45,970 bases of DNA from a virus (lineage: Duplodnaviria; Heunggongvirae; Uroviricota; Caudoviricetes), in the IMG/VR virus record IMGVR_UViG_2778261461_000002, positions 1 to 45,970 of that record. The stretch is one strand, 5' to 3'. A model generated the notes under the pieces. It was given only the letters and a program-made list of their open reading frames with translations. It had not been told where the DNA came from and did no database searches. This document shows, piece after piece, positions 1 through 38,516 of the stretch (positions are counted from its first letter, which is position 1; the number at the start of each line of letters is the position of its first letter). Position numbers and translations under genes: made by a program.

Positions 1-318
1 TCACACCACCCTGTCATCCTGCAGCGCGCTGTTGATGAAGTACGTCACGCGCCCCATCACTTCGACCTCTTCCGCAGCCTCACCTTCGATCGCTTCACCA
101 TCATCCGTGATTAACGCCCTTCCCCTGAGTTTCGCAAACTGCGTCCTGCCGCCGGACAAAATCAGCAAAACCTGACCCTGTACCAGCCTGGTGCACGGCT
201 CGATGACCGCAAAGCCAGACGAGGTTTCCAGGATGCGGCTGTCCATGCCGATCCCGCAGATAATTTCCGGAGATAAACGCGGTGCTACGAAATCAGCCGC
301 CGGTGAAGGAAATCCCAT
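1..318 (-). CDS. UmuD/LexA-like S24 peptidase-family protein (UmuD'-like, 105 aa)
   Basis: N-terminus MGFPSPAADF matches the UmuD segment just after the Cys-Gly autocleavage site; QFAKLRG fits the catalytic-Lys region; stop codon at bases 1-3, so any partner gene lies outside the window. Confidence 0.5.
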   Translation of the reverse strand: MGFPSPAADFVAPRLSPEIICGIGMDSRILETSSGFAVIEPCTRLVQGQVLLILSGGRTQFAKLRGRALITDDGEAIEGEAAEEVEVMGRVTYFINSALQDDRVV

Positions 319-566
319 CAGAGCACCCTCCCCATGTTGCGCAGGATCCAGTAGTGATTGTCGGTTCCGTCAGTTGTCTTGTCGGTGAAGTCGGGCTGGT
401 AGCGCTCTATCCACTCGTTGGCATCGTCCCGGCTGAAATGCCAGTGAACCTTTGCCAGTTCGCGGATAAAGTCTTCTGTGCGTAAGCACCGGTAGCCCTT
501 GGGGTTTAGCTGTATTGCGGCCACAAATGCGGCGTGAATGTCGTGACGGCGGGGCATGATCTGCAC
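318..566 (-). CDS. hypothetical protein (82 aa), 1-nt overlap with downstream UmuD'-like gene
   Basis: ORF track; tight coupling to the next gene; no motif recognised. Confidence 0.3.
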   Translation of the reverse strand: MQIMPRRHDIHAAFVAAIQLNPKGYRCLRTEDFIRELAKVHWHFSRDDANEWIERYQPDFTDKTTDGTDNHYWILRNMGRVL

Positions 567-682
567 TCCTTTTACTGTTTTTATATACAGTAGTTTTAAA
601 GTGAGTGCAGATCAATGTGGTGAAGCCTATCAATACGTGTCGCTGACGGGCGTCAATGCCCTGGCGCATTCTCTCTCAACTG

Positions 683-3046
683 TCACCTGAACGAGATACG
701 CACGCGTTTGATGATTACATCGCCACCGAATGTGCTTGGTGATGCGTAGCCGAACTTAATCTTGGTGATCATCGAAGAGGACATGCCGGTGATCGTGTGG
801 GTATTAATATTCCCGACCTTATAACCGTCCTCAGTCCGCAGTCTGGCGATCTTGCTTGGAATATCGAGAGAGTGCCTGAACTTACAGACATTCCCTGCAA
901 CGAGCGGGTATGTGGCGCTAGATGTAAGGTCTGACGCTACACCGCCGCTGGACACTGTTCCCCTGGTCTGCAGGCTGGCGGTCACCTGATACAGGGCCCT
1001 GTCCCCGGTTGTTGCTTCACCGAGCGTTACGACATAGCACTGCCCTGACGGGCCGATGAAATCAATTTCTACGGAGATCCTTTCGAATGAGAGACCAGCT
1101 TCCATGAAATCAGCAGTATCGATATAAGCCCGGTTAGTGGCACCAAATTTCGCACCGATAACGTTGTTTTTAGCATCACGAACATACTCGATCGCGCCAT
1201 TGATAAACGTCAGCTTACCAAACAAGTTTGAAATTGCTGCTGATTTTGGGCTCAGGTGGTTGGAGACGTTTAATTTCCCACTGACAAAGTCAGCCACAAT
1301 GTCATAGCTTTTTTCTTTCCCGCCAGCACTGCCGAACCAGTAATCAACCGGAGCTGTATAAATCCGGGAACTGGCTTTCGCTGTCGGGTGATTAAGCCCA
1401 TTACCGCCATCCCCCTCGGTGTTATATACGTCATGATCGGTTAATACGGGAGCCATAGGAATTTCAGTTCCTGCAATCAAATCAACCCTCATCTGCCCGG
1501 ATCCTCCAATTGTAGGCGTGAAGAGGCCACCGAAGCGGATGATATTTCCTGAGAACACTGGGGTTGTATTATCTCCAATGAAAATCGTCAGAGAATCACC
1601 ATTCAACGAGAAGAAGATTTCCATATCGACAGCAGGCGCCGCGCCATCGGCAAACTGGTTAAGCGTAATCCCCACTGACGTTCCGGTGTACACCTGGACA
1701 TGCCATTTAGATAGCGCCATATCGTACGCAAGCGTAACGAAGTTATTCGTAGCCTGAGACAGTGAAAACTGAATGCCGGCAGTCATAACGGCAGGATCCG
1801 TCAGGACGAGCCTTGCCGAATAGCATGGCACCATATCAGTATACGAATAGGGTAAGTTCACCAGGACTGAGGTGGTTTTGCGAGCATAGCTGAACGCGCA
1901 CGGATCTACTCCATCACGCAGCGCTTTAAACCTCCGGTGCAGGTCTATAAAGCTGGCCCCGATGAATTTTGCATAAGAACGGGTCCAGCCAGCCATCGCG
2001 TCACGCCCGGATTGCTGATCAAAATCTGACGTTGCCGGGTTCCCTTTTGACGGAAGAATATTCGTACAGAAAATAATTTCAGGCTCGCTGCTGATGGTCC
2101 TGAGCTCATCCATCATTTTATAAAAGTTAGGCTGCTGGAAATTACCCGCGAGCCAGCCTGCACCGTCGTTCATCCCGAAAGCCAGGATCACTACATCAGG
2201 CTTGAGATCGTCAATATATGACATCCAGCGCTTTGAGGTGTTGTCATACCAGGGATAGCCACTGTTTGGTGTGCTGAAAACGGGTTCGTTTCTGCCTAAA
2301 TCGTAATATCGCATCCCACCGATAGCACGGTTAATAAATTCCGCAGTTGGGTTAATCTCCTGCACCTTTCTGCGAAGATAGGACTCAAACAGCGACGTGA
2401 TATTAGCTGTGTCAATATTATAGAAGCTGCTGAGGCTATCCCCGACCAGAACTACTTTCGCGCCATGGCGGCAGAGCTTGTTTTTGGCGGCCTCAGTTGC
2501 ATACCCAAATGACATTGGAGCAGGATCTGATGCCAGAATCTCACCCAAAGTCCTGTCAAATGGCGTACCGACCATAGTGGCACCGGTTGGCTTTGCCAAA
2601 TCGCTGCGTGCAGTTCCGTCACTCACATTGACCCATTTCCCTTTATCTACTCCGCCAGAAGTAGTCGGCGTAGAACCAGGAGGGACCACTTTAGGGAGTG
2701 CACCATCCCAGCGGTAATAATCACCATCGCCGTCTGGCAACTTCCAACGTAGTGCCTGATTAGTTAGGGTCAGCGTTTTACCATCCTGGAAGGAGTCCAT
2801 GGTGATGTAACCCACACCGGCAATGGCTTTCTTGCCATCTTCAATAAATTTATTAATTGCCGCTGATGCGATCCCCTCAAGACCGTACCAGGTACGCCGG
2901 GCGCGACCAAAGCGATCATGCCAGATAGCATCAGTAATGCTGTTGATGGCTGTATCAAAATTCTGGGAGTTATCGAAGAGGTCCTTCGGGTCGGTGGAGC
3001 CCAATGGTTTGTTTGTTCCGTAAATAGTCATGCTCGCTCCGGGCAT
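683..3046 (-). CDS. tail fibre/tailspike with central SGNH/GDSL hydrolase domain
   Basis: 787 aa; GDSL block VVLVGDSLSS and AFGMNDG block typical of SGNH esterases; position immediately downstream of the J-like gene; alternative start at 3031 (MTIYG). Confidence 0.7.
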   Translation of the reverse strand: MPGASMTIYGTNKPLGSTDPKDLFDNSQNFDTAINSITDAIWHDRFGRARRTWYGLEGIASAAINKFIEDGKKAIAGVGYITMDSFQDGKTLTLTNQALRWKLPDGDGDYYRWDGALPKVVPPGSTPTTSGGVDKGKWVNVSDGTARSDLAKPTGATMVGTPFDRTLGEILASDPAPMSFGYATEAAKNKLCRHGAKVVLVGDSLSSFYNIDTANITSLFESYLRRKVQEINPTAEFINRAIGGMRYYDLGRNEPVFSTPNSGYPWYDNTSKRWMSYIDDLKPDVVILAFGMNDGAGWLAGNFQQPNFYKMMDELRTISSEPEIIFCTNILPSKGNPATSDFDQQSGRDAMAGWTRSYAKFIGASFIDLHRRFKALRDGVDPCAFSYARKTTSVLVNLPYSYTDMVPCYSARLVLTDPAVMTAGIQFSLSQATNNFVTLAYDMALSKWHVQVYTGTSVGITLNQFADGAAPAVDMEIFFSLNGDSLTIFIGDNTTPVFSGNIIRFGGLFTPTIGGSGQMRVDLIAGTEIPMAPVLTDHDVYNTEGDGGNGLNHPTAKASSRIYTAPVDYWFGSAGGKEKSYDIVADFVSGKLNVSNHLSPKSAAISNLFGKLTFINGAIEYVRDAKNNVIGAKFGATNRAYIDTADFMEAGLSFERISVEIDFIGPSGQCYVVTLGEATTGDRALYQVTASLQTRGTVSSGGVASDLTSSATYPLVAGNVCKFRHSLDIPSKIARLRTEDGYKVGNINTHTITGMSSSMITKIKFGYASPSTFGGDVIIKRVRISFR

Positions 3047-3070
3047 AAAAAAACCCGCCGAAGCGGGTCA
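3047..3070 (-). terminator. rho-independent terminator between J-like gene and tail fibre gene
   Basis: GC hairpin acccgc-ttcg-gcgggt followed by U-run on the minus-strand transcript; also hairpin plus T-run on plus strand. Confidence 0.6.
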
Positions 3071-3088
3071 GATAATATTGATTTGCTG

Positions 3089-6000
3089 TTAAGCGGCGTC
3101 GCCTGGGTATGTGGCGTCATCGTAGGCGTATTTGCCGGGGTGATACTGAATGGCTGTTACCTGGCTGATCCCATCGTTACCCGGTGATATTTCTCCGATC
3201 AGAGCGTCGTAAGGCACACGGACAGAAGAGCAGAACAGCAGGCGCGGCGGCTCAATATACGGGTCGTTCATCGCCCACAATTCTGGCTCCAGCGCGGCGC
3301 TATACGGCACCGAGATGGTGAAGTCGTCGATGCGTGTCGGCACTACCATTGCCGAAGCCCTGCCGTCCTGGTGGCGGATAATCACGCGAGGGCTCTGGAA
3401 TGACCAGTCAGGTGCCTCACTGAGCGTCATGGTGATTTTGCTGCTGTCATACTTCATATCGGTAATCAGGCAACTCAGCTGCTGATTGCCCGGTATATCG
3501 TCGGCCATTACAATCCGATCCATAAACTCGTAGCAGAGCGCATCCATTTCAGTTGATGTGGTGTGCTGCAGGCGCTGCAGCTGGTAGCCCAGCAACCGGC
3601 GCATGCCGATGCGGTAAGCCCGGTCTTCATTCAGAACACCATCCAGCGTGTAGCTCTCGATTTTCATGGGTGTAGGGTTTCCAGGCAGGCGACACTGCAC
3701 AGTTTCCTCTGCCCAGGTGGTGCCGTTGATATACGCCACGTCCACGCCATCGTAATCGTCCTGCGACGGGGCTTTAAACGCGGTCTGCAGCTCCTCGGTG
3801 GTTTCCTGCGGGGTGATCATGCCGACCCATGGTTTAATCCCTTCCCTGCCGGCAGACGCCAGCCCGTCAGACAGCAGAAAATATCCCATCCCCGCGTTGG
3901 TGATTTTCTGCAGCACCTCGAGCGCTGATTTACTCTCACCGCTCGCCCAGTCGAATTTCTCACCTCGGGGGGTCCAGTAGGTTTGCTCCAGCGCGTTAAT
4001 CGCCGCCGTGTCAATCTGGCTGGCGTTGAACCCCAGCGACTCAAGCACATGGTACAGCGCGCCGCTGATGCTCCGCGCCGTTCTGCCGCCGCTGTAAATC
4101 CGGGTTGGTGTAACGCTAATCCGGCGATCTGACATGGCCGCCAGGCGGTTCCCTGTGCGTACGGTCAGGGCCATGGTGGTGACACCATCGTACCTCGTGG
4201 GTCGCTTGCTCAGCCGGGAGCGCAGCGCCTGCCAGAAAACCTGGTCACGCGTGCTGCCACCCTTAACCGGTTCGGTGCGGCGCATCCGGATCTCATACTG
4301 TCCGGGAGAGACGCTGTAGCGATGCGTAAACCCGATCTGGTTTTCAGTGCTGCGTGAATAGAAAGGTGACTGCTGCTGCCAGGTAGTGGTCCCGACCTTC
4401 CGATACTGGATAACGAGGCGCACCGGCATGTCCCGTTTATTCCCTTTATCGGTGTAGCGCACTAACCCGCTCTGGAAGTTGATATTCACCTCAAATGCGT
4501 CCAGCGTTTCGCCGTCAGGGCACGCCAGGAACGGGCCGACCCATTCGTAATCGTCGCTGACACCTGTCACGGTGGCATCCAGCAGCGTGCGCTCTGTGAA
4601 ACCAGGCCACGATGGATCTGGCGTCGTAATGGTCTCACCCCCCGGGCCGGCGGTGACTGTAAGCCGCTCAACTGTGACCGTCTGGCTGTCCACATCGGTG
4701 ATCCGGAACTGATTGCCGGCCAGACCCAGCGAGAAGCGCTGAATGCCTTCCGGCAGTCCGGTAAACGGCGTGCCGGCGGCGCTGTTGTAGGCCAGAGTGA
4801 TGTGCGCCCTGACCTCCGCCGTGCCGCCAGTTGATTTCACGCCTGCCGTGTTAACCGGGGCATCACCGAACACAGCAACCGGTAACGGACTGTTAGTGAT
4901 GGACCCGCCGGCATAAGGGCTGCTGGCCTCGCCGATTTCAAGCCGCCCGCTGTTATCGCGCGCGACCAGGCCAGAACCAGAGAGCTGGGAGGTGATCGAG
5001 GAAATCAGGCCTGACATGGTGACGTAGTTGGTCACCAGCGATACCGGGTAAGTCGTGCCCTGCCAGCTGATGCTGAACGTTACAGGCGTGCTGCTGAAAT
5101 CGTAGGTCGTCGGCGCGGCGTTAGCGGTGATGCTGGCGGCGCTGCCGCCCACACCCGGCACCGGCGGCACGCCCGGGGCGTAGCTGGCGATAAACAGGTC
5201 ATAGTCATTGCCGTTATAGTTCAGGGATACCGGCATTCCGACCACTGGAGCCAACTCCTCCACCCCGCCATAAATCACGCTGTAACCGGCGGAAGACACG
5301 ACTGTATAAGAGTTTGGCGCCAGCACGGTGATGACCGTTCCGACAGTCCACGACGGCGGGATCTCCTCATCCCCAGACGACGATACGTCAACCAGCGTGA
5401 TGGAGTTTCCGGACACGACCAGCGCATCCGCGATAATACTGACCGTCTCCGGGCCGCTTGAGCCCAGGTCCAGACCGGCGGTGCCGGAGCCGGTATTCCC
5501 GACCTCTGGTGAGTTGAACCAGTTTTCGGTACGCGTGTCGCCGGATACGTCAGCGCCAGGTGGGAAGATTTTGTAACGGATATCAGTGCCAAATGAAGAA
5601 AATGGCGTATTCCCCACCTTCAGATCAGACTGGTTGATAGCCACGTCGCCGACGCATATGCACAGGAACATGCTTGTTTCCATGCTGGTCTCGTTGACGA
5701 AACGGCTTACCGGCTGCACGACGTAATCAGGCCAGACACGGTATTTTCCGAAGATTTCCCGGATGGGATCGCCGAGTTTCGCCGCGTTAGCTTTGGCCGG
5801 GTTGAGGTCAATCTGGTCGCCGCTGGCCGCCTGGGAACCGCCGCCGCCAGCTTGCGACATAGTACTCATCATGTAGATGCTGTACGCAGCAGAGGCGACA
5901 GCTACGCTGACGGCAACCCAGATCGCGATTTCTGCGCCGGTACCGTAGGGAACCGGATACATCCTGACGTCGGTTTCCCGCTTGATAACGCACAGTGGCC

Positions 6001-35757: not shown

Positions 35758-36300
35758 TCACATAACCCCCAACATCGAAGTGACCATAGCCATCAGCGGC
35801 GCGGTCAGATCCGGGTCGACACGGAACATCTCTACAATCCCCTCACTGAGTTCCTTGAGCTTCTGGTGACGCGGGGCGTTCATCGCAACGGCCACTTTCG
35901 CCTCGCTCGTTTCTTTCTCAAGTCGAGCTAAGCGGGACATAAAACTGTCCTCTGGAAGAAGTCGATGGCGATACTCCAGCGGCAAAACGGCCATGATTGC
36001 GGGCGTCAGCTGGCGCACGTTCTCGCGGTACTGCTCAGAGTCGAAGCGGTTATCCAGGAAGCGGAACAGCTTCTGGCGCGCCCGGCTGATGTCGTCCGGA
36101 AAGCTGATGGCGGTCCCGCCCTGCTCCCGGTATTCGTTGATGATCAGCGCTGACACCACGTCCTGATTATCCAGCGCCGATGACCAGGCACGGACCGCAT
36201 CGCGGATCTTTTCGTGGTCCGGCGTCGCTTTAGCTTGAGCGCGGTTTATCATCGCTCCCGGGTGTATTCCGGTATTGTGTTGATACGCAAGTGAATGCAT
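35758..36300 (-). CDS. YdaT-like / CII-position regulatory protein
   Basis: 180 aa; resembles Rac-prophage YdaT as recalled (EYREQGG and LTPAIMAVLPLEYRHRL blocks); sits where cII lies in lambda. Confidence 0.45.
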   Translation of the reverse strand: MHSLAYQHNTGIHPGAMINRAQAKATPDHEKIRDAVRAWSSALDNQDVVSALIINEYREQGGTAISFPDDISRARQKLFRFLDNRFDSEQYRENVRQLTPAIMAVLPLEYRHRLLPEDSFMSRLARLEKETSEAKVAVAMNAPRHQKLKELSEGIVEMFRVDPDLTAPLMAMVTSMLGVM

Positions 36301-36317: not shown

Positions 36318-36551
36318 TTAGGCCGCAGTATCACGCGGCGATGCGAATACCAGGCTTTCTTTTAGGACCGGAGCCTGGCGGTGAAAATTCTTCGTGCCTT
36401 TCTCGATAGCAGATGCCATTTCTGGAGATGCCCGGCGATTTCCGTAGGCGATCTGGTCCAGGTAACCTGGCGTCGTGTTAGCCAACTTTGCGAGCTGCGC
36501 CCATTCGTCGGTAGTGGCGGCCTTGCGCCAGCGGTGTAGTTCAGTGCTCAT
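36318..36551 (-). CDS. cro: Cro-like repressor (HTH)
   Basis: 77 aa; divergent from CI across an operator-containing intergenic region. Confidence 0.6.
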   Translation of the reverse strand: MSTELHRWRKAATTDEWAQLAKLANTTPGYLDQIAYGNRRASPEMASAIEKGTKNFHRQAPVLKESLVFASPRDTAA

Positions 36552-36583
36552 TGGTGTCTCCGGGTGAGTCGTTTGATTTGGAG

Positions 36584-36649
36584 TTTAGCGTTATGCTAAA
36601 TACTACGCAAGCATCATTTAGCAATTTGCACATTTATCATTTTGCTAAA
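36584..36649. promoter_or_regulatory. OR-like operator cluster (TTTAGC-N5-GCTAAA sites) with divergent promoters
   Basis: perfect palindrome TTTAGCGTTATGCTAAA at about 36584-36600 plus two degenerate copies; lies between cro-like start (36551) and cI ATG (36668). Confidence 0.55.
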
Positions 36650-36667
36650 AGCAGTAACAATGCAGGT

Positions 36668-37345
36668 ATGGAAAATAAAGAAATCAGAAAAGCCAACCTG
36701 GAAGCGCTGTACGAGAAGCGTCAGCACGAGTCTGGAATGACCAAAGCGCAGTTTGCCGAGCTCATCGAGACAAGTCCGGCTGCGCTTAGCCAGCTACTGG
36801 GACCAAACCCTCATCGCAATATCGGCGATAAGATGGCTCGCAAAATTGAAACTGCGCTTGATCTGCCTTTTGGCTGGATGGATGTTTTACACGCCAGTGA
36901 AGAACCTTCGAACGTTGCATTTCGAGGACTGAACGAGACAAAAGGAAGTTATCCTGTAATCAGCTGGGTAAGCGCGGGGCAATGGATGGAAGCTGTAGAA
37001 CCTTATCACCGAAGAGCGATAGATCGCTGGTATGACACGACTGTTGACTGCTCAGAAGATTCATTCTGGCTGGACGTTAAAGGGGATTCTATGACCTCCC
37101 CGGCTGGACTAAGCATACCCGAGGGAGCAGCGATACTTGTTGATCCTGAAGTCGAGCCGCGCAACGGAAAGCTGGTTGTCGCGAAGCTAGAAGGCGATAA
37201 CGAAGCGACCTTTAAGAAGCTTGTAATCGATGCCGGCAGACGCTTCCTAAAGCCCCTTAACCCCGCATATCCAATGCTAGAAATTAATGGAAACTGCAAA
37301 ATCATCGGCGTTGTGGTTGATGCCAAAATACTAAACATCCCATAA
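36668..37345 (+). CDS. cI: CI-type prophage repressor (HTH + LexA-like S24 autopeptidase domain)
   Basis: C-terminal VKGDSM Ser motif and Lys in ATFKKL; N-terminal HTH; ORF track starts at TTG 36551 but ATG 36668 (MENKEIRK) avoids the operator region. Confidence 0.85.
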   Translation: MENKEIRKANLEALYEKRQHESGMTKAQFAELIETSPAALSQLLGPNPHRNIGDKMARKIETALDLPFGWMDVLHASEEPSNVAFRGLNETKGSYPVISWVSAGQWMEAVEPYHRRAIDRWYDTTVDCSEDSFWLDVKGDSMTSPAGLSIPEGAAILVDPEVEPRNGKLVVAKLEGDNEATFKKLVIDAGRRFLKPLNPAYPMLEINGNCKIIGVVVDAKILNIP

Positions 37346-37803: not shown

Positions 37804-37977
37804 ATGGATAATCAGGATAATGAGTTAAGAAAGGTTGTTCAGGAACTTGCTGATGAAGAAGGCATCAGCTTTTCCGATGCCCTAGATGTTTCGATTAAAG
37901 CGCTGCGTTATGAGGTAGAGCGCAGAAAATCGTTTAACGGTGAAGCTGCTTGTGATGGCTCTGCAATTACTTCTTAG
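37804..37977 (+). CDS. small acidic ORF (57 aa), first ORF of the pL-like transcript
   Basis: ATG verified; below the ORF-track size cutoff; not Arg-rich, so not an obvious lambda N analogue. Confidence 0.3.
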   Translation: MDNQDNELRKVVQELADEEGISFSDALDVSIKALRYEVERRKSFNGEAACDGSAITS

Positions 37978-38245
37978 CCAAGTACCAAGAGGTGTCTGCG
38001 GCTTCGGAAACCAGTACGTAATAGCTTTGCTTTACACTACTAGCTATACCTCTGACTTCCTCTCTAACGTTATATGCAGTTGATGTTTTTACGGTTGTAT
38101 ATTCAGCTGTTGGGAGGTTAAACCAAGTGCCATTACCATCCTGTATCTCACGCGAATAACCCTTTGCTTTCATCTTTTCATGAAGATTTTCATAGTCTTC
38201 AGAATCAGCGCCGCGCAACTCAACTCGAACAATATATCTTGCCAT
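37967..38245 (-). CDS. hypothetical protein (92 aa from internal Met), convergent with pL-like operon
   Basis: ATG at 38245 with AGGAA Shine-Dalgarno; ORF-track N-terminal extension would be encoded across a terminator hairpin and is unlikely. Confidence 0.45.
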   Translation of the reverse strand: MARYIVRVELRGADSEDYENLHEKMKAKGYSREIQDGNGTWFNLPTAEYTTVKTSTAYNVREEVRGIASSVKQSYYVLVSEAADTSWYLAKK

Positions 38246-38359
38246 AAGAAGATTCCTATATTGACTGTGGAATGAGCAACATATCAGTTTCCTTTGACTG
38301 TGGAAAGCAAAGGGACACGGGCCGGGCGTGGATAAAAATCCCGGCACCAACCATCGCAA

Positions 38360-38383
38360 AGCCGCCACCTGAGCGGCTTTTTT
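38360..38383 (+). terminator. rho-independent terminator (tL-like) on plus strand
   Basis: hairpin agccgc-cacctga-gcggct followed by T6. Confidence 0.5.
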
Positions 38384-38516
38384 CATACCTAAGAAACTTC
38401 GCAGAGGTTTCTAAGTTATGAGACGGCGGCCATCCACCGCCCATTGAAACACTGAATAAATGCGTTGAAGTCTTGTATTAACCGTTCCGTTCGCCGCGAT
38501 AAGGCCAAGAGGATTT

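Follow-up and report, generated by a model that had tools for sequence, protein, structure and literature searches.

We analysed a stretch of 45,970 nucleotides (nt; hereafter the window) from the Caudoviricetes record IMGVR_UViG_2778261461_000002, which is organized like a lambdoid prophage; two small genes separate the tail genes from attP/int. The gene at the left edge of the window (1..318, minus strand, TGA stop at bases 3..1) can be identified securely as encoding a phage UmuD′-type protein of 105 amino acids (aa) that is LexA-box-controlled, catalytically inert and made in its final form. As to its function, we lean towards the view that it is a phage-borne, ready-made UmuD′ from a short HumD-type branch, which by analogy with HumD would serve host UmuC after SOS induction. 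An earlier sequence-only reading pointed out a 105-aa open reading frame whose product starts MGFPSPAAD and whose stop codon occupies bases 1-3. This frame is indeed present; its product begins MGFPSPAADFVAPRL and ends in QDDRVV (translation of 318..1, minus strand).

Without a profile, the N-terminal motif is the sole similarity to UmuD that can be detected. In a pairwise tblastn comparison of Escherichia coli UmuD with the window, only UmuD residues 25-38 matched (E 0.009), and the 105-aa protein as a single query against the PDB returned noise only. A family profile built from 26 diverse relatives (28-68% identity) matched the PDB entries of UmuD and UmuD′ with E values of 1.7e-9 to 3e-8, positions 2-97 falling on UmuD 25-137, and hhalign of this profile against UmuD gave a probability of 97.8% (E 1e-12). 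Because the profile match to UmuD/UmuD′ is full-length, the similarity of the motif is not due to chance. The protein also matched PHROG 3469, 'UmuD-like protein' (E 3e-45; residues 1-103 on profile positions 1-103 of 106), and PADLOC returned nothing for either small protein. An AlphaFold2 model computed with 135 relatives reached a mean predicted local distance difference test score of 86.4. When it was compared with the PDB by Foldseek, the top matches were all C-terminal domains of LexA, UmuD′ and the lambda and 186 CI repressors, with template modelling scores of 0.55-0.60 to 1UMU/1AY9; a helix corresponding to that of UmuD 40-44 is present in the model, as is the final beta-strand. In some relatives the relationship is visible by eye, since P0241 and gp34 of Erwinia phage Midgardsormr38, for example, still contain HHPSAT/RPSST, comparable to HPSAT of UmuD. 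The N-terminus, MGFPSPAADF, lies at the equivalent of UmuD Gly25, and F3, S5 and P6 are invariant in the 135 relatives. The sequence-only reading had proposed a start at the UmuD cleavage point without the inhibitory arm, and on this the profile searches, hhalign and Foldseek agree: judged from its sequence, the 105-aa protein is a true UmuD′ homologue that starts at the Gly25 position and has no N-terminal arm. One metagenomic relative, P0147, has a full UmuD-like N-terminal arm (..FIRPAELREIIALTLFSDSMQCGFTSPAADY) on a short-family body, and its C-terminus looks frameshifted; it may be a recombinant of umuD and a short gene at the shared GFPSPAADY, or an assembly chimera.

The protein has lost the machinery for self-cleavage. 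With the host's own UmuD as the reference for numbering, the alignments agree that an 11-residue deletion takes out UmuD DSMIDGGISDG, including the nucleophile Ser60, and that Ala62 stands where UmuD has the general base Lys97; 122 of the 135 relatives have Ala at this position. The Ser-Lys dyad of self-cleaving S24 peptidases (UmuD, LexA, CI) is absent, and the dyad conservation for which the sequence-only reading had looked was not borne out. The lysine of FAKL was considered as a catalytic lysine and ruled out, since it aligns with UmuD K98 and K97 corresponds to Ala62. With the Ser60 loop deleted and Lys97 changed to Ala, self-cleavage is impossible; equally, a protein that starts at the cleavage point has nothing to cleave, so that the chemistry is not needed. 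HumD of phage P1 keeps both Ser60 and Lys97, and in HK639 the HumD-type protein carries Thr and Met instead, which indicates that the dyad was already dispensable among the long phage forms.

What the family retains is distinctive. Nearly invariant are GFPSPAxDY, a Cys at position 21, ETSxGYAVI and the acidic LITxDGEAIEGEAL, the last a very conserved segment that replaces UmuD 107-123. Since a protein that is never cleaved keeps GFPSPAxDY and drops the active-site loop, this motif would have a role in mature UmuD′ beyond that of a cleavage site. Short-family members and long HumD-type proteins have in common an acidic C-terminal tail that is absent from UmuD. This tail reads GEFDDCPVI in P1 and FDDCPVM in HK639, the consensus of the short family is DDxPV(I/M), and the window protein has QDDRVV, with no Pro; in some members the tail is DDxxP(F/V/I), as in ...SDDSPF and ...DDGCPF (alignments A2 and A5; window residues 99-105). 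The C-terminal tip of the single-stranded DNA-binding protein (SSB) is DDDIPF, and the family tails DDxPV(I/M) and DDxxP(F/V/I) resemble it. On these sequence features, the most fitting view is that the short family derives from HumD-type proteins by trimming.

P1 HumD offers the closest comparison. Like the window protein it is phage-borne, starts at the cleavage point (MGFPSPAADY) and has no N-terminal arm; its gene likewise has a LexA box close upstream and no cognate umuC, and the acidic tails of HumD and the short family follow the same pattern, (F)DDxPV(I/M). The Gly25-equivalent start is found in the window protein, P1 HumD, HK639 gp28 and HK140 gp28. The two proteins differ in length (105 aa in the window versus 129 aa in P1), through the Ser60-loop deletion and two short deletions in the C-terminal half of the window protein. 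They differ also in that HumD keeps the equivalents of Ser60, Lys97, Tyr52 and D91/E93, whereas the window protein has Ala at Lys97. P1 has no 79-aa gene, in contrast to the window, where such a gene lies 5′ of the UmuD′-like gene and is coupled to it. In our set of loci, P1 HumD lies at L003:2498-2887 and the HK639 HumD-type gene at L004:2489-2887. HumD is said, in work of McLenigan and colleagues from 1999, to bind UmuC and RecA filaments and to restore mutagenesis. The passage of PMC7092418 that deals with P1 HumD, and likewise the title of the 1999 paper, presents it as a UmuD that is already activated and has no umuC of its own.

E. coli UmuD′ (1UMU, 1AY9, 1I4V, 8GMT) has the same fold and can be aligned over UmuD 25-137. 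It arises by RecA-stimulated cleavage, whereas the window protein is made directly, has no Ser-Lys dyad and does not keep the RecA-groove contacts. The C-terminal domain of LexA and lambda CI (PF00717) shares the beta-fold of the window protein by structure search; unlike these proteins, the window protein has no Pfam match, catalytic Ser/Lys, cleavage-site region or DNA-binding domain.

A 20-base-pair LexA (SOS) box, TACTGTATATAAAAACAGTA in the gene-strand reading, lies at 573-592 and matches the consensus. It is the only site in the window with at most three mismatches to the consensus (none were expected in shuffled sequences), and it is identical to the boxes 5′ of the host umuDC operon and of umuDC in phage PHB10; the LexA box that the sequence-only reading suggested looking for upstream of the coupled small gene is thus in place. 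A putative sigma-70 promoter can be read at 587..615 (minus strand), with -35 TTGATC (615-610), a 17-nt spacer and -10 TACTGT (592-587), the last overlapping the LexA box. The upstream regions of the window operon and of host umuD both read ATTGATCTGC, followed by 14 nt and then the box, and direct comparison shows the -35, spacer, -10 and box to be common to the two; the promoter and operator of E. coli umuDC thus have the same -35, spacing and box as the window. A generic promoter scan did not call this promoter, whose -10 matches at only 3 of 6 positions, and it is proposed by homology only. The box was present in all 82 loci of our viral set (viral-collection loci and phage records) and in 61 of 67 loci of our genomic set, which consists of species-representative genomes. 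It lies ~275 nt 5′ of the UmuD′-like ATG where the 79-aa gene is present (78 viral loci) and ~35-63 nt 5′ of it where that gene is absent (4 viral loci). On this sequence evidence, control of the operon by LexA as part of the SOS response is strongly predicted.

The gene has no polymerase gene beside it. In umuDC, mucAB and rumAB a umuC-like polymerase gene follows directly downstream, which is the case neither for humD nor for the window gene. The expectation of the sequence-only reading, a umuC just outside the window, is refuted: the next gene, in the matching prophage of E. coli FDAARGOS_1250, is host yciB, and tblastn with phage and E. coli UmuC queries found none anywhere in the window. 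FDAARGOS_1250 does carry an intact host umuDC operon ~125 kb from the prophage gene. The 105-aa gene is therefore an orphan without a cognate polymerase gene, like humD. The same earlier reading would have been given up if there were no Y-family polymerase gene nearby and the catalytic elements were missing. Both were found to be absent, and neither absence is decisive, because P1 HumD also has no umuC and is nevertheless described as activated UmuD (PMC7092418, in the passage on HumD), and because the chemistry of cleavage does not matter for a protein whose translation already starts at the cleavage site. Two of the 82 viral loci (L007 and L081; tblastn) do have umuC beside the short gene (L007:4321-5592; L081:4324-5592). 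There the short gene stands in the umuD position with a TGATG overlap with umuC; in L007, host-like genes (SRAP/YedK-like, DacD-like) come after umuC.

The protein keeps the beta-core of the LexA/UmuD (S24) fold as well as the GFPSPAxDY motif of the N-terminal arm, which is invariant. In the mechanism that we propose, its gene would be cotranscribed with the coupled 79-aa winged-helix gene from the copy of the umuDC promoter and operator, and LexA should repress the operon as long as no SOS response is under way. Once DNA is damaged, the 105-aa protein would, by analogy with HumD, bind host UmuC as a dimer and form a polymerase V-like translesion polymerase without waiting for RecA-mediated cleavage of UmuD. 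Damaged host or prophage DNA could then be replicated around the time of induction, with mutations as the price. LexA control in vivo, dimerization, UmuC binding and translesion synthesis are inferred in this scheme; the homology, the fold, the lost dyad, the identity of LexA box and promoter, the missing cognate umuC and the purifying selection are shown. We favour this reading because the operator, -35 and spacing match those of host umuDC and the LexA box is conserved; because the gene occupies the same slot as umuDC of PHB10 and the HumD-type genes of HK639 and HK140; because the short gene holds the umuD position before umuC in 2 of 82 viral loci; because HumD is described, in the passage cited (PMC7092418), as activated UmuD without umuC; and because of the full-length homology, the Gly25 start, the HumD-type tail, the intact host umuDC and the purifying selection documented below.

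Several observations weigh against it. No Pfam family matched the 105-aa protein at E values up to 1, Peptidase_S24 (PF00717) included, and the NCBIfam HumD model (NF051876) matched residues 1-21 only, with 27.6 bits against a cutoff of 120. In the cryo-electron microscopy structure of RecA with UmuD, UmuD Y52, F94, D91 and E93 sit in the filament groove (PMC9926225); P1 HumD keeps these residues, and in the 105-aa protein they are replaced by R28, T59, G56 and R58, respectively, so that its interaction with RecA may differ from that of UmuD. None of the 67 genomic loci has umuC within 4 kb of the gene (tblastn), which means that no genomic linkage stands behind a partnership with UmuC. Of the two adjacent umuC copies in the viral loci, one is broken by an in-frame stop and the other by a frameshift, which could reflect decay or sequencing errors. 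The 79-aa partner has no counterpart in the P1 UmuD′/HumD paradigm, and full-text literature searches on the short family and the lambdoid cassettes returned no study or experiment. The loss of the RecA-groove residues, the orphan status, the broken umuC copies, the unexplained partner and the frequent presence of dinI are what leaves room for rival explanations.

According to one of these, which we judge unlikely, the protein is a mini-UmuD′ that acts as a non-productive binder or modulator of host UmuC, of UmuD/UmuD′ or of RecA filaments, no active polymerase being formed; it could be a dominant-negative anti-mutator, or a brake on RecA-dependent recombination or on CI cleavage that tunes the timing of induction. 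The deleted catalytic loop and the lost RecA-groove contacts, combined with an invariant GFPSPA (UmuD F26 and P29 touch RecA), would suit such a modulator, as would a gene with umuC in 0 of 67 genomic loci and with both of its adjacent umuC copies broken. The prophage CI, with its HTH and Peptidase_S24 domains, is a possible heterologous partner, and the cassette is often back-to-back with dinI, which encodes a modulator of RecA filaments. Its regulation and location are nevertheless those of umuDC and humD, its closest characterized relative, HumD, is reported to be a functional UmuD′ homologue, and no sequence feature points specifically to inhibition.

The gene upstream of the 105-aa gene deserves attention in its own right. 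The sequence-only reading had described it as a coupled open reading frame of 82 aa. A frame of that length does exist (318..566, minus strand) and overlaps the 105-aa gene as TGATG (316..320, minus strand); the start chosen by the open-reading-frame finder, GTG at 566, falls inside the Shine-Dalgarno sequence AGGAG (566..570, minus strand), 8 nt 5′ of a conserved ATG at 557-555. This ATG gives a protein of 79 aa (318..557, minus strand; stop 320-318; N-terminus MPR), the length also annotated in RefSeq and that of nearly all relatives among the matches listed (120 of 198; range 76-89 aa). A TGATG or TAATG junction joins the two genes in most related loci, and we infer that they are translationally coupled. 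The 79-aa protein belongs to PHROG 3893. It has no significant match in Pfam, NCBIfam, PADLOC or PDB sequence searches, and its predicted structure suggests a generic winged-helix fold, with no family or structure match beyond that. Its predicted third helix, at the position of the DNA-reading helix in the winged-helix fold, is acidic (DDANEWIERYQ). The protein may be an adaptor or a regulator.

This partner gene is present in 46 of the 67 genomic loci; in ~18 genomic and 4 viral loci, the UmuD′-like gene and the LexA box occur without it. Two sequence classes of the partner reassort freely with near-identical UmuD′-like proteins (distance correlation r 0.22), and so weak a correlation is of little help in deciding whether the two proteins form a specific complex. 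The same cassette is found in phages mEp390 (gp26), HK140 (gp27-gp28) and Midgardsormr38 (gp33-gp34), with PHROG 3469 accompanied by PHROG 3893. In these lambdoid cassettes the order is LexA box, 79-aa gene, UmuD′-like gene, between the tail fibre and attP/int, and a divergent dinI is often adjacent; none was found in the window. The gp26 protein of mEp390, annotated as 'UmuD-like protein', shares 51% identity with the window protein. In mEp390 and Midgardsormr38, as in the window, the partner stands 5′ of the short type of gene, whereas HK140 pairs it with a gene for a long, 129-aa HumD-type protein. In mEp390 the 79-aa gene (L002 4762-5001) is unannotated, an opposite-strand 43-aa open reading frame (gp25) being annotated instead, and the LexA box (~4718-4737) lies between it and the divergent dinI. 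In HK225 (L088 1501-2408), dinI and a LexA box are accompanied by the 79-aa gene, whose annotation includes a 99-aa extension; a DNA invertase gene comes next, in place of a UmuD′-like gene. The annotation of the HK225 attP notes similarity to yciI, which is near the yciB/yciA insertion site. Plasmid impCAB-type operons, in which a small first gene precedes a umuD-like gene within an SOS mutagenesis operon, have an analogous architecture. ImpC is DinI-like, whereas the 79-aa protein has no DinI similarity in Pfam and a winged-helix-like model, and impCAB also includes a polymerase gene. PMC7092418 makes mention of the accessory gene of impCAB.

These data bear on a second rival, that the operon is a LexA-controlled induction module in which the 79-aa protein is an antirepressor or small regulator, comparable to those of Gifsy, 186 (Tum) and N15 (AntC), with the UmuD′-like protein as a passenger. 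It is the 79-aa gene that comes first after the LexA box, and this gene is small and conserved (dN/dS 0.13, the ratio of non-synonymous to synonymous substitution rates); HK225 has it without a UmuD′-like gene, and LexA-controlled small antirepressor genes located outside the immunity region and linked to dinI are known (PMC3121763). We nonetheless hold this explanation to be quite improbable. An antirepressor of this kind (Gifsy GfoA/GftA, 186 Tum, N15 AntC) would be expected where the prophage repressor has no self-cleavage domain, and the prophage here encodes a lambda-type, cleavable CI (36551-37345, plus strand; HTH_3 and Peptidase_S24 domain matches), so that an antirepressor is not needed. 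Moreover, the box and the UmuD′-like gene do without the 79-aa gene in the ~18 genomic and 4 viral loci noted above, and the acidic third helix of the 79-aa protein, together with the lack of any match beyond a generic winged-helix fold, speaks against the role.

Both genes are under purifying selection, which is strong for the 105-aa gene (dN/dS 0.09 over 496 pairs). The 105-aa family comprises 1812 protein clusters from many enterobacterial genera, with a constant length of 104-110 aa and many invariant residues. The cassette was detected in 429 viral contigs and in 171 of 5426 complete E. coli genomes; it is very common in temperate phages that infect E. coli, Klebsiella, Enterobacter, Citrobacter, Salmonella and related bacteria. 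In a plasmid collection, the matches, of which 37 of 42 were non-mobilizable, fell mostly in records of ~45-50 kb, with the matched features labelled 'hypothetical protein'; these records are possibly phage-plasmids. A third rival, that the gene is a decaying relic without function, left by a phage umuDC operon whose umuC was lost, might be suggested by a protein shorter than UmuD′, with its catalytic residues gone, umuC absent and the adjacent umuC copies disrupted. The dN/dS ratio effectively refutes it, and the uniform length and invariant residues across the 1812 clusters, as well as the conservation of the LexA box and of the translational coupling, also stand against it; we give this pseudogene reading hardly any credence.

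Ready-made UmuD′ genes in phages have been known since HumD, a precedent of 25 years, and members of the present family are already labelled 'UmuD-like' (PHROGs, mEp390). What is new is the short form, devoid of the active-site loop and the Lys and with a C-terminal tail in common with HumD, and an operon with an exact copy of the umuDC operator in which a conserved winged-helix partner travels along. If the protein does arm host UmuC without the delay of RecA-mediated cleavage, lysogens would become error-prone earlier or more strongly after exposure to DNA-damaging antibiotics, which would bear on mutation supply and the evolution of resistance. For structure-function studies of polymerase V, the short family also marks out the minimal core of UmuD′, and the conserved 79-aa partner is a predicted SOS gene that is uncharacterized; the family should be of moderate interest to specialists in the SOS response and translesion synthesis. 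More speculatively, and in our estimate improbably, the short protein and its winged-helix partner could constitute a phage module, induced by the SOS response, that works independently of polymerase V. Its contacts may be the GFPSPA arm, the LITxDGEAIEGEAL surface and, in most relatives, the SSB-like tail, its targets RecA filaments, SSB-binding proteins or the S24-type repressor of the prophage, and it may determine when induction occurs or shield phage DNA during replication.

The genomic setting agrees with that of other phage-borne genes of this type. The placement downstream of the tail fibres given in the sequence-only reading holds, since the pair lies at the att-proximal end of the prophage, where other phages likewise carry umuDC or HumD-type genes: the slot between the tail fibre and attP/int is occupied by full-length umuDC in PHB10, by HumD-type genes in HK639 and HK140 and by the short type in mEp390. 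Bases 1-700 of the window are 100% identical to the prophage of FDAARGOS_1250, in which the 105-aa gene is the final prophage gene and host yciB is 135 nt away; the integrase, at the opposite prophage end, adjoins host yciA. The element, with its integrase end at yciA and its 105-aa end at yciB, is thus inserted between two host genes, which we take to be neighbours in E. coli K-12. The window exceeds the FDAARGOS_1250 prophage (NZ_CP069571.1 3671293-3716065) by 1,197 nt, although the integrase gene has the same length in both; it probably derives from a near-identical sister prophage of another strain, with an indel. As it would come from another strain, its yciB flank is deduced and not read directly.

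The next gene upstream of the 79-aa gene, at 683-3046 (minus strand), is tailspike-like; its product of 787 aa has Tail_spike_N and GDSL/SGNH esterase domains, which suggests a receptor-modifying (deacetylating) tailspike. A megablast search with window bases 1-3100 gave no match in the phage collection. The immunity region, besides CI, encodes a protein with a YdaT_toxin domain (35758-36300, minus strand; domain match) and a 139-aa open reading frame with a weak GhoS-like match (37967-38386, minus strand; E 2e-4). The window also encodes a RecT/YqaJ recombination pair, and its right end is the integrase start codon. At the other end, the stop codon of the 105-aa gene is the exact end of many IMG/VR loci, the window included. 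Directly left of window base 1 (L001:11930-11975), ~30 nt past the stop codon, lies an 11-base-pair perfect inverted repeat, AAGCACGCTTC ... GAAGCGTGCTT, with a 16-nt loop and without a T-run, which could be a terminator-like or att-associated structure.

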